Source of the DNA: Escherichia coli
Lineage (GTDB): Bacteria; Pseudomonadota; Gammaproteobacteria; Enterobacterales; Enterobacteriaceae
Length of the DNA: 64,000 nucleotides
Direction: 5' to 3' (one strand)
NCBI RefSeq assembly: GCF_003334815.1
Contig: NZ_QOWO01000010.1
The notes beneath the pieces are model-generated. The model was not told the origin of the DNA. It worked only from the letters and a program-made list of their open reading frames with translations, and searched no databases. The translations under genes and the position numbers were made by a program. This document shows positions 13,032-17,810 of this stretch, piece by piece. The first letter of the stretch is position 1. Each line of letters opens with the position of its first letter.

Positions 13032-13979
13032 TCAGACAACTTCCTCACCGTAACGCATAGTGCTGGTACGGTTGCGCCCATCTTTCTTCGAGCGATACAG
13101 ACACGTATCGGCTTCGACCATCAATTTATTAAAGTCATCGGTCAGCGTTAGGTACGATGCGCGACCACTACCGACGCCAATACTTACCGTGAGATAAAGC
13201 GTTTTTTGTTGCCAGGTGAATGGTTGCAGTTCAACGCCTTTACGGATTTTTTCCGCCATTAGCAGACCATCGACAGGATTCACCGACGGCACTGCAACAG
13301 CAAATTCTTCGCCGCCCATTCGCGCCACCAGCCCCTTATCACCGACAATCTTCTGAATATGCCGGGCAAACACGCTTAACACTTTATCGCCACATTCATG
13401 TCCATAGTTATCGTTAATGCTTTTGAAATAGTCGATATCAAGCAGCATGACAGTCAGATGTTGTGTCTGTTTCAGCGATGGACTTTTCAGCGCCTCATAA
13501 AGACCGGACCGTGAGTAAACCTGAGTCAGAAAATCAAAGTCGGCTCGCAGCGCAACTTGCTTCATTAGCGAATTGATCGCTGCCACGCTAAAAGAAACCA
13601 TAATTGGGCATATCGCCATCGTGGCAATACCGAGACGTGCGGAGAACATTTGCGGAATGGAGAACGGCGAACCGACCGAGATATCAATCACCGAATTTGC
13701 CACCAGTACGATTTCCACCGCACCGGTGACAAAGGTCAACAGACATGTTACCTGCGGCGTATAGCGCACTGCACACCAGATTAATGCAGGCAGCGGGAAC
13801 GCCAGACTCCCCGCTCCGCCAATGACTACCGAGGCAATAACCGACACAATAAGCGCGATGGCGGGCATCATCTGTTCTGCTTTAAAGCGCGGCAGCACTC
13901 CAGGAATAGCCAACGTCAGCATACAAGGCACGATCAACACGCCCGTTGAGAATTGCTCACTGAACCAGTCCGCAAGCAA
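13032..13979 (-). CDS. dgcF: Membrane-anchored diguanylate cyclase (GGDEF domain)
   Basis: 315-aa ORF; hydrophobic N-terminus; GGEEF active-site motif (RMGGEEFAVAV) visible. Confidence 0.85.
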   Translation of the reverse strand: MLADWFSEQFSTGVLIVPCMLTLAIPGVLPRFKAEQMMPAIALIVSVIASVVIGGAGSLAFPLPALIWCAVRYTPQVTCLLTFVTGAVEIVLVANSVIDISVGSPFSIPQMFSARLGIATMAICPIMVSFSVAAINSLMKQVALRADFDFLTQVYSRSGLYEALKSPSLKQTQHLTVMLLDIDYFKSINDNYGHECGDKVLSVFARHIQKIVGDKGLVARMGGEEFAVAVPSVNPVDGLLMAEKIRKGVELQPFTWQQKTLYLTVSIGVGSGRASYLTLTDDFNKLMVEADTCLYRSKKDGRNRTSTMRYGEEVV

Positions 13980-14090
13980 AGGCCAGAAATCCAGACTATC
14001 AATACTGACCGAACCAAGATAGCATGTTCGCTGACAGCGGCGGCAAATAAAGGTACCCTGGGAATGCTATTTTGTCGTTTTCCGCAATTC

Positions 14091-14450
14091 TCATGGCTGA
14101 TTCATCTGTACAACCAGCCAGTGATAGATTACCGCCACGATATAACGTTGTTGTTCTTCGCTTAACGAAACACCCTGCGGAATGTTATGCCACTTAGCCA
14201 GACAACCGCGACAGCAGGTCGCGGTGGCGTGCTGAGCGATAAACACCGGATGCCCGCGCATGGGGGTTTGCTTACCGTCATTAGCCGGTAATGCCGGAGC
14301 AAGACGTTTAGCGACAAAATCCGCCGCATGTTGTTCGATGACTGGCGCGCCTTTCTCCAGGCAATACTGACGCTCTTTCATGCCCAGACGAAAGCGAGAG
14401 CGAAATTTTGAACGGGATAAACGCGCGAAGAGTGGATCGAGAGACTGCAT
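14091..14450 (-). CDS. yneG: Uncharacterised protein YneG
   Basis: 119-aa ORF; start codon overlaps glsB stop (TAATG). Confidence 0.8.
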   Translation of the reverse strand: MQSLDPLFARLSRSKFRSRFRLGMKERQYCLEKGAPVIEQHAADFVAKRLAPALPANDGKQTPMRGHPVFIAQHATATCCRGCLAKWHNIPQGVSLSEEQQRYIVAVIYHWLVVQMNQP

Positions 14451-15376
14451 TAATAAACCGAACGCCCTAACTGTTTCGTCAATTGTTCAAGGACGGCAAT
14501 ACCCGCAAGCGAGTTACCTGCATCATCCAGTTCCGGACTCCAGACAGCGATGGCCATTTCATGCGGAACAATCGCCACAATACCGCCACCAACGCCAGAT
14601 TTCGCCGGTAGCCCCACCCGCCAGGCAAACTCCCCCGCGTTCTGGTACATACCACTGGTCGCCATCAGCGCGTTAATTTGCCGCGCCTGCATTGGCGTCA
14701 CCACTGGTTCATCAATATGAATAGCTTTCCCCTGATTAGCCAGAAAGACAAACGTCCGGGCCAGCTCTACACAGCTCATTTTCAGAGCGCAGTAATGAAA
14801 GTAGTTTTGCAGAACGGTTGTCACGTCATGATGGAAATTGCCAAACGACTTCATCAGCCAGGCGATAGCCGCATTTCGCGCGGAATGTTCAAATTCGGAA
14901 CGCGCTACCACCGTATCGTAGGAAATATCAGACACACCGCTTAAGCCGCGCACGACTTCCAGCATACGTTGCCGTGGTGCGCTTAATCGCCCTTGCAACA
15001 TATCGCAGACCACCAGCGCACCGGCATTAATGAACGGATTACGCGGTATACCCTGCTCCATTTCCAGTTGCACTAAGGAATTGAACGGTGATCCAGACGG
15101 ATCTTTGCCGACGCGTTGCCAGATTTCCTCTTCGGAGTAATGACGCATGGCGACAACGAGACTCAGCACTTTGGAAATAGACTGAATGGAAAAACGTTCT
15201 TGCGCGTCTCCGGCCTGAAAAAGCTGTCCGTCAACGGTACAGATAGCAATCCCCAATCGGGAACCGTCTACTGTAGCCAGCGCCGGAATATAATCCGCGA
15301 CTTTACCCTGACCAATGAGCGGCCGCACTTGCCGCAAGATGTTTTCTAAAATTGCATTATCCATGGCGACTGCCAC
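14450..15376 (-). CDS. glsB: Glutaminase 2
   Basis: 308-aa ORF; recognised glutaminase sequence. Confidence 0.9.
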
Positions 15377-15439
15377 TTTCTACTCCTGGACCGCAGGTCT
15401 GAAAAGACCTGCGAGTATATCAGAGCTGAATATGTCGCG

Positions 15440-16828
15440 TCAGATCCGGTCTTTCCACACCGTCTGGATATTACAGAATTCGTGTAAGCCGAAATGGGAA
15501 AGCTCACGACCAAAGCCACTCTTTTTCACGCCACCAAAGGCCACTCGCGCGTCGCTGGCACAATAACCATTGATAAACACCCCACCGCATTCCAGACGTG
15601 CCGCCATCTGTCTGGCCTGTGTTTCGTCAGTGGTAAAAATGGTCGCTGAAAGGCCGAACTCACTATCATTAGCCAGTTCCAGTGCATGTTCTGCATCTTT
15701 CGCAATGGTGATTGCCGCAACGGGGCCAAACATTTCTTCCCGAAACGCGGTCATTTCTGGGGTAACATTCGCCAGAACCGTTGGCGGATAGTAGTTACCT
15801 GCCCCAGCCATCTTTTCCCCGCCCAGTAACAAACGCGCACCCTGCGCCAGGGTTTTCTCCACCTGATGATGCAGCTCATCACGTAAATCAAAACGAGCCA
15901 TTGGTCCGAGAGCGTTCTCTTCGTCACGGGGATCGCCCATTTTCAAGGCTGCCGCAGCTGCCACAAAACGTTCGGTAAATGCCGAAGCAATTCCCTCTTC
16001 GATAATAAAGCGTTTTGCCGCTGCACATACCTGTCCGGTATTCTGATAACGTCCGGCTACCGCCGCTTTCACCGCCAGTTCCAGATCGGCATCGTTAAGC
16101 ACAATAAACGGATCCGAACCGCCCAGTTCCAGTACGCATTTTTTCAGTGCCGCTCCAGCCTGTGCGCCAATAGCCGCTCCCGCACGAACACTTCCGGTCA
16201 CCGTGACAGCAGCAATGCGCGAGTCTTTAATCATCTGACTGACACCGTCGTTGTCGGCATTCAGCCAGCCATATACGCCTTGTGGGATACCCGCATCTTT
16301 AAACACCTGGGCAATGAGCTGTGCACAGCCCATCACATTCGGCGCATGTTTAAGTAAGTAGCCGTTACCTGCAAGAATGATGGGAACAGCGCCACGCATC
16401 ACCTGCCATAACGGAAAATTCCACGGCATAATCGCCAGAATCGTCCCCAACGGTCGATACTCAATAACCGCCTGCTGATTTTCCACCAGCGTAGGTTCCG
16501 CCTTCAGCATTGCCGGACCATGTTCTGCATACCAGTCACACAAATTCGCCGATTTCGCCACTTCAGCGCGCGCCTGGTTGATTGGTTTGCCCATTTCGCG
16601 GGTGATCATTTGCGCCATTTCTTCGCTACGAGCGCGCAGAGCCTTACCGATATCACGCAGTTTTTCAGCACGATAATCTATATTTGTCTCGCGCCAGTCG
16701 CGAAAGCCTGCTGCCGCCAGCTGAAGTGCGTTTTCGATATCGTCAGCGCCAGCCCACGGCAGCACAGAAAGTTGTTCACCCGTGGCAGGATTTATCGAAA
16801 TTGCATGAGTTGCCGGAGTAATGGTCAT
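15440..16828 (-). CDS. sad: NAD-dependent succinate-semialdehyde dehydrogenase (ORF extends to 16852)
   Basis: Aldehyde dehydrogenase family; catalytic Cys region visible (GQVCAAAKR); recognised sequence. Confidence 0.9.
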
Positions 16829-16928: not shown

Positions 16929-17810
16929 ATGGATCTGACCCAACTGGAGATGTTCAACGCGGTTGCCGAAGCTGGCAGCATAACCCAGGCTGCAGCAAAA
17001 GTGCATCGCGTGCCGTCGAATCTCACTACCCGTCTGCGCCAGCTGGAAACAGAACTGGGGGTTGATCTGTTTATTCGCGAGAATCAGCGTTTACGTCTCT
17101 CTCCTGCCGGGCATAACTTTTTACGCTATAGCCAACAAATTCTCGCGTTAGTGGATGAAGCGCGGAGCGTTGTCGCTGGCGATGAGCCGCAAGGTTTATT
17201 TTCTCTTGGTTCGCTGGAAAGCACCGCTGCAGTGCGCATTCCAGCCACGCTGGCGGAATTCAACCGTCGTTATCCCAAAATTCAGTTTTCACTTTCCACC
17301 GGCCCTTCCGGCACTATGCTGGATGGTGTACTGGAGGGAAAACTGAATGCGGCGTTTATTGATGGACCCATTAACCATACTGCCATCGACGGGATACCGG
17401 TATACCGCGAGGAACTGATGATCGTCACGCCACAAGGATATGCGCCAGTAACCCGTGCCAGTCAGGTTAATGGCAGTAACATTTATGCCTTCCGCGCCAA
17501 TTGTTCGTATCGTCGCCACTTCGAGAGCTGGTTTCATGCTGACGGTGCCGCTCCGGGAACTATCCATGAGATGGAGTCTTATCACGGAATGTTGGCCTGT
17601 GTGATCGCAGGAGCAGGCATTGCGCTTATTCCGCGCTCTATGCTGGAAAGTATGCCGGGGCATCACCAGGTTGAAGCGTGGCCGTTAGCTGAGCAATGGC
17701 GTTGGTTAACAACCTGGCTGGTCTGGCGTCGTGGTGCGAAAACACGTCCGCTCGAGGCATTTATTCAACTGCTGGATGTGCCTGACTCGGCAAGACAGGG
17801 ATATCAATGA
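16929..17810 (+). CDS. yneJ: LysR-type transcriptional regulator, divergent from sad
   Basis: 293-aa ORF with N-terminal HTH; divergent arrangement typical of LTTRs. Confidence 0.88.

Follow-up and report, generated by a model that had tools for sequence, protein, structure and literature searches.

What can a single base shared by two genes tell us about an orphan protein? In Escherichia coli, the glutaminase B gene glsB runs into yneG, a gene of the DUF4186 family, through overlapping stop and start codons. A first-pass annotation of this DNA took this and other overlaps as signs of tight co-expression, and from there tied YneG to glutaminase and, through the upstream gene sad, to succinate-semialdehyde metabolism. 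We analysed the junction within a 64,000-nt stretch (hereafter, the window), a segment of the E. coli chromosome that extends from lsrK to ydgC, lacks the Qin prophage and contains 66 genes (RefSeq annotation transferred from near-identical E. coli strains). Many complete E. coli chromosomes match the 5-kb piece around the junction at 100% identity, and this piece was found in 5,422 of 5,426 genomes. The genes on the minus strand run in the order sad, glsB, yneG, dgcF, and ptrR (yneJ) is divergent from sad (Table 1). Two side observations concern the surroundings. Downstream of yneG, dgcF (yneF; window 13032-14090) is a short ORF of 315 aa with a TTG start; RefSeq flags a missing N terminus in a 100% identical strain, and a gene of 470-490 aa occupies this position in another E. 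coli (L004) and in other genera. Elsewhere, ydfJ is intact and lies 57 nt from rspB (window 34494-34552), marking a strain without the prophage that is known here in other E. coli; in strain 52F4 (L002), integrase and prophage genes adjoin rspB.

Table 1. Coordinates of the genes, junctions and candidate elements discussed. Positions are those of the window, except in the last two rows, which refer to loci of the DUF4186 survey.
Feature	Position	Strand	Description	Basis
sad (yneI)	15440..16828	-	succinate-semialdehyde dehydrogenase; opens the published sad-glsB-yneG operon	RefSeq mapping
glsB (yneH)	14450..15376	-	glutaminase B, 308 aa, GTG start	RefSeq mapping, 100% identity
yneG	14091..14450	-	119 aa, DUF4186 (PF13811)	Pfam match, E = 4e-52
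ptrR (yneJ)	16929..17810	+	LysR-type regulator of sad-glsB-yneG, divergent	RefSeq mapping, literature
glsB/yneG junction	14448..14452	-	TAATG; glsB stop TAA 14452-14450, yneG start ATG 14450-14448	sequence, ORF list
lsrA/lsrC junction	5144..5150	+	7 nt, ATGCTGA; strong GGAGG SD upstream; lsrA 3615-5150, lsrC 5144-6172	RefSeq mapping, sequence
lsrC/lsrD junction	6170..6174	+	TAATG, 1 nt (base 6172); strong GGAGG SD upstream; lsrD 6172-7164	RefSeq mapping, sequence
mgtS/mgtT junction	24864..24868	+	TAATG, 1 nt (base 24866); weak SD; mgtS 24771-24866, mgtT 24866-24970	RefSeq mapping, sequence
mdtJ/mdtI junction	54791..54804	-	14 nt; strong GGAGG SD upstream; mdtJ 54791-55156, mdtI 54475-54804	RefSeq mapping, sequence
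Promoter-like element	15414..15443	-	CTGACG, 18 nt, TG-n-TATACT (extended -10), in the sad-glsB spacer	consensus scan, conservation
Predicted hairpin	15392..15413	-	stable hairpin directly after TATACT, where the 5' end of a glsB-yneG transcript is predicted	folding vs shuffles
Clostridia loci with C-terminal DUF4186	near 6001-6345 in most		L037, L038, L044, L053, L061, L064, L066, L070, L079, L081	DUF4186 match
ybaK-adjoining DUF4186 loci	around 5970-6830		L046, L048, L052, L062, L068, L080; YbaK-type Cys-tRNA(Pro) deacylase	TIGR00011 above curated cut-off

That these genes are expressed together is already on record. The yneIHGF operon is repressed by PtrR, and the sad, glsB and yneG mRNAs are de-repressed in the mutant (bioRxiv 10.1101/2020.04.27.065417); co-regulation of sad and glsB has been supported, and a glsB mutant grows poorly on glutamine, or on glutamate plus putrescine as the source of nitrogen (PMC9068703); the sad-glsB-yneG mRNAs depend on YneJ, in a study that calls YneG a DUF4186 orphan (PMC9283627); and a point mutation in yneJ raises the Sad, GlsB and YneG proteins 10- to 100-fold (PMC11480449). 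We take PtrR-dependent expression and the PtrR site in the sad-ptrR spacer from this literature (10.1101/2020.04.27.065417, PMC9283627, PMC9068703). The window has the same genes, the same order and the same divergent regulator as the published sad-glsB-yneG (yneIHG) operon of the YneJ/PtrR regulon, with nothing that differs. Tight co-expression of sad, glsB and yneG under yneJ, as proposed in the first-pass annotation, is thus borne out at the level of both RNA and protein by work already published. The papers on yneIHG are silent on the stop/start overlap, on the missing Shine-Dalgarno (SD) sequence described below and on a conserved TATACT ahead of glsB.

The overlap itself is as it had been described: base 14450 is common to the glsB and yneG ORFs in the program-made list. 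The minus strand reads GGTTTATTAATGCAG across the junction, and in the longer read, CGGTTTATTAATGCAGTCT, the glsB TAA and the yneG ATG share one base. Three database entries annotated as 'glutaminase' and carrying DUF4186 (AFDB A0A377K717 and A0A2X3FBH3, together with P0002) are GlsB-YneG read-through fusions. We rejected such proteins (P0002, 200 aa; AFDB entries of 200 and 431 aa) as natural fusions and read them as single-base indels or sequencing errors, since one indel near a 1-nt overlap brings both frames into register; in P0002, the GlsB C terminus is frameshifted, with LTKTIRAFSLL replacing the normal residues.

Three other overlapping pairs had been listed for the window, lsrA/lsrC, lsrC/lsrD and mdtJ/mdtI, and all match the mapped RefSeq annotation. 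The coordinates of the four listed pairs were therefore right, but the list was incomplete, as it missed a fifth junction, mgtS/mgtT. At all five, the stop and start codons of two same-strand genes overlap, both partners encode conserved proteins, and there is no spacer and hence no room for a promoter or terminator between them. All four listed pairs sit in operons already described. Among these, lsrACDBFG, for the AI-2 ABC transporter, and mdtJI, for a heterodimeric SMR spermidine exporter, are textbook operons, and the LsrACD and MdtJI products are subunits of known membrane complexes; the window junctions are like those of these operons, with overlaps between subunit genes and a strong SD at each. 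The mgtT ORF is entirely antisense to the Hfq-binding small RNA STnc560 (24860-25073 on the minus strand, 281 bits), which is the sole Rfam match in the window; Rfam gave no match near the glsB/yneG junction. Overlaps of 3' ends also occur between clcB and a bioD-like gene (48 nt, 48179-48226) and between folM and ydgC (4 nt, 63350-63353). These gene pairs are convergent and unrelated to coupling.

Neither the number nor the kind of these overlaps sets the window apart. On a flat distance distribution, three co-directional pairs at exactly -1 among 41 would be rare (P about 9e-4), and -1 overlaps as a class are non-random, reflecting a genome-wide peak: -4 and -1 are the commonest same-strand spacings in E. 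coli, where 707 of 2,987 same-strand pairs fall between -8 and +6 (PMC10666635). Against about 9.7 expected from that -8 to +6 background, 5 of the 41 same-strand pairs in the window overlap. The window is not enriched in overlaps and, if anything, lies below the published E. coli average. Like the -1 and -4 coupled pairs of Huber et al. (PMC6728339, PMC10666635), the window has junctions of the TAATG/TGATG class, on the same strand and inside operons; three of the five have an intragenic SD, as is typical of those pairs, whereas yneG and mgtT do not have a usable one, and overlaps of 7 and 14 nt are rarer than -1, -4 and -8. Taken jointly with the re-initiation account of yneG given below, we think it likely that all five are ordinary intra-operon junctions and reflect the normal packing of E. 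coli genes. As a finding, the overlaps matter little, being a standard feature of bacterial operons.

What the junction could add concerns translation. A ribosome finishing the upstream gene would already be on the downstream start codon, or a few bases past it, so that both genes would be translated in step from one mRNA. Among overlapping E. coli pairs (-1 and -4), coupling was tight in four of the five tested (Huber et al. 2019, PMC6728339), and it collapses at a spacing of about 20 nt (PMC10666635). From the sequence we infer translational coupling at all these junctions, although the means would differ between them. Scoring SD strength by the best duplex between the upstream region and the 16S rRNA 3' terminus (window median, -5.8 kcal/mol), we found the three strongest anti-SD duplexes in the window at lsrC, lsrD (-10.3 kcal/mol each) and mdtI (-10.6 kcal/mol), all of them GGAGG sites at normal spacing inside the upstream gene; such sites would permit either re-initiation or fresh initiation. 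The yneG duplex reaches only -3.9 kcal/mol and is misplaced: the sole G-rich run belongs to codons for the GlsB C terminus, about 14 nt away. That of mgtT reaches -4.0 kcal/mol, and both are below the window median. Thus, yneG and mgtT have no usable SD sequence.

It is this lack of a ribosome-binding site that makes coupling a reasonable proposal above all for yneG, whose translation would probably depend on ribosomes terminating on glsB. The most likely route would be for a ribosome to terminate at the UAA of glsB and then restart on the AUG that overlaps it, which would cap YneG output at GlsB output, with no more YneG made than GlsB. We rejected coupling through the unfolding of a masking RNA structure: the RNA surrounding the yneG start folds less than its shuffled controls do (z = +1.66), so no hairpin needs to be opened. 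Termination-reinitiation is a likely, not a certain, explanation of how YneG is made, and it is the one we adopt with good confidence.

That same open start leaves room for another reading, in which the overlap is neutral packing and ribosomes load independently on a shared mRNA, with no true coupling. We regard this as rather unlikely. The yneG start region is both unstructured and A/U-rich (TTTATTAATG), which would favour independent loading, and bioBF provides a precedent: these two E. coli genes overlap, the SD is weak, and initiation is de novo and uncoupled (PMC6728339). Removal of the SD also reduced re-initiation in four of five E. coli pairs (PMC6728339). Together with the uncoupled bioBF, this means that the SD-less yneG junction may be inefficient or may initiate independently. 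Set against these points, initiation without an SD is expected to be poor, and coupling was the outcome in most of the overlapping pairs tested in that study.

Conservation of the junction also bears on this choice. We scanned one genome per species and obtained 80 loci encoding DUF4186 proteins, 21 of which have glsB directly upstream of yneG, all of them in Enterobacteriaceae. With the window included, 19 of 22 Enterobacteriaceae species have the one-base overlap T(A/G)ATG (TAATG or TGATG), and its persistence through TAA/TGA changes argues against independent loading, although a trait shared inside a single family may just have been inherited. The three exceptions have glsB-yneG gaps of 18, 104 and 212 nt, which shows that spacing is tolerated in related species and so speaks for independent loading; the species with the 212-nt gap (L023) has a canonical AAGGAGG ahead of yneG. 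We retain re-initiation at the glsB stop codon as the preferred account of yneG translation.

The surrounding gene order is looser. Twenty further Enterobacteriaceae loci share the order sad, glsB, yneG, frequently with mcp between sad and glsB; this insertion, present in about half of the species, has been reported before (10.1101/2020.04.27.065417, PMC9068703). As mcp variably splits sad from glsB, glsB-yneG is the constant core. In Phytobacter (L013), yneG stands behind sad-mcp without glsB. In 18 enteric loci a GNAT gene follows yneG, usually with diguanylate cyclase genes in between; BLAST showed no similarity between it and the GNAT domains of DUF4186 fusion proteins, and we read its conservation as synteny only.

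Does coupled expression mean that YneG works with glutaminase B? The expression link between yneG and glsB is solid and already known; the functional link is unproven, and the overlap informs on YneG function only weakly. One could suppose that YneG is a stoichiometric partner or regulator of glutaminase B and that the 1-nt overlap without an SD is there for this reason, with coupled synthesis serving co-translational assembly, but we find this quite improbable. The overlap is conserved, GlsB and YneG rise together (PMC11480449), and both observations fit such a partnership. The other overlapping pairs listed for the window, LsrACD and MdtJI, do encode complexes of this kind. Taxonomic distribution points the other way. 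Adjacency of glsB and yneG was found only in Enterobacteriaceae (about 21 of the 80 loci) and was absent from Pectobacterium, Dickeya, Pantoea, Erwinia, Rahnella, Tatumella, Hafnia and all other sampled phyla; 58 of the 80 DUF4186 loci have no glutaminase nearby, DUF4186 is fused to unrelated domains, and Phytobacter keeps yneG in the absence of glsB. Of the tie to glutaminase and succinate-semialdehyde metabolism put forward in the first-pass annotation, the expression link stands, confined to Enterobacteriaceae; it does not extend to the DUF4186 loci outside this family, as 58 of 58 have neither a glutaminase gene nor sad within 6 kb. AlphaFold2 modelling of a linker-fused GlsB-YneG gave a mean pLDDT of 78 and a pTM of 0.65, about that of two independently placed domains; but confidence in the GlsB part was only moderate, and the output held no inter-domain error map, so that this score decides for neither side. 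We treat it as a minority possibility that YneG and glutaminase are functionally tied.

The comparative data on the DUF4186 family point elsewhere. YneG is a full-length match to PF13811 (model positions 3-108 of 109), its AlphaFold2 model has a pLDDT of 94.6, and NCBIfam, PHROGs and PADLOC returned no match for it; our literature search found no publication characterizing the family. DUF4186 comprises 1,563 clusters at 50% identity and is strikingly conserved, with 50-68% identity across phyla. The residues that never vary are D58, G59, Q61, H67, P68, F70, A72, H74, C79, R81, C83 and W87; C80 and H88 are almost invariant. YneG carries the invariant H67, H74, C79 and C83 as well as C80 and H88, a His/Cys pattern that suggests a metal site.

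Its genomic company varies widely. Among 38 longer DUF4186 members, the domain is fused to DUF5131 in nine, to GNAT in four or five and to a RecD/UvrD-type helicase in three or four, with single fusions to an AddA-like nuclease-helicase, NUDIX, glyoxalase, DUF188 and DnaJ. In at least ten Clostridia genomes, including Lachnospiraceae, DUF4186 is the C-terminal domain of an ORF of about 840-975 aa; the one such ORF that was checked, in L037, is a full-length RecD2 (NCBIfam TIGR01448 score 930, cut-off 500). In six loci, mostly from Melainabacteria/Gastranaerophilales, the DUF4186 gene abuts ybaK or overlaps it by a few bases. Pectobacterium has the gene between pgl and ybhA, and Tatumella and Pantoea have it near ldcA and emtA. 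DUF4186 thus appears to be a portable and probably metal-binding module. That Enterobacteriaceae captured YneG, a small, all-helical, slow-evolving and probably metal-binding protein without a solved relative, as a partner or modulator of GlsB is doubtful. If it were true, the SD-less UAAUG junction would restrict YneG synthesis to where and when GlsB is made.

Upstream of the pair, transcription starts at the PtrR-controlled sad promoter and probably also within the sad-glsB spacer, where our consensus scan picked out an extended -10 element (Table 1). Its TATACT is the same in all 21 Enterobacteriaceae species compared and precedes the glsB start by 34-44 nt (42 in most), a position that holds whether sad or mcp is the upstream gene. 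Genomic SELEX had placed a constitutive promoter for 'yneHG' in this same spacer (PMC3946193). The element is probably a dedicated glsB-yneG promoter that would act beside read-through from sad. With the sad promoter and a glsB-proximal promoter both upstream of the pair, glsB-yneG would be the tightest unit of the operon.

The hairpin predicted directly after TATACT folds better than expected (z = -3.54), with 0 of 200 shuffles folding as well, and its stem is kept in 13 species. We rejected covariation support for it, as only one compensatory pair was seen and the covariation term came out close to zero; the hairpin stays a prediction. In the minimum-energy fold of 15392-15443 (minus strand), an outer stem pairs the sad stop region with the glsB SD and start region.

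By the first-pass annotation's own reckoning, independent promoters immediately upstream of yneG would have undone the link to glsB. A main yneG promoter inside glsB, which would leave the overlap with little to say on co-expression, is highly improbable and was rejected as unsupported: a consensus sigma-70-like scan found no promoter-like site in the last about 800 nt of glsB (weak evidence, as its total number of sites equals the shuffled-sequence expectation), the promoters placed by genomic SELEX are confined to two spacers, sad-yneH and yneG-yneF, with yneHG as one unit (PMC3946193), and sad, glsB and yneG change together as both mRNA and protein (10.1101/2020.04.27.065417, PMC9283627, PMC11480449).

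For the biology of translation in E. coli, glsB/yneG is a natural -1 overlap without an SD and a good native test case for re-initiation in the absence of one. Three points raised by the sequence can be tested: metal binding through H67, H74, C79 and C83, the dependence of YneG on GlsB translation, and the glsB-proximal promoter. YneG belongs to a very conserved, widespread and uncharacterized family, and the junction offers a clean experimental handle on this orphan protein.
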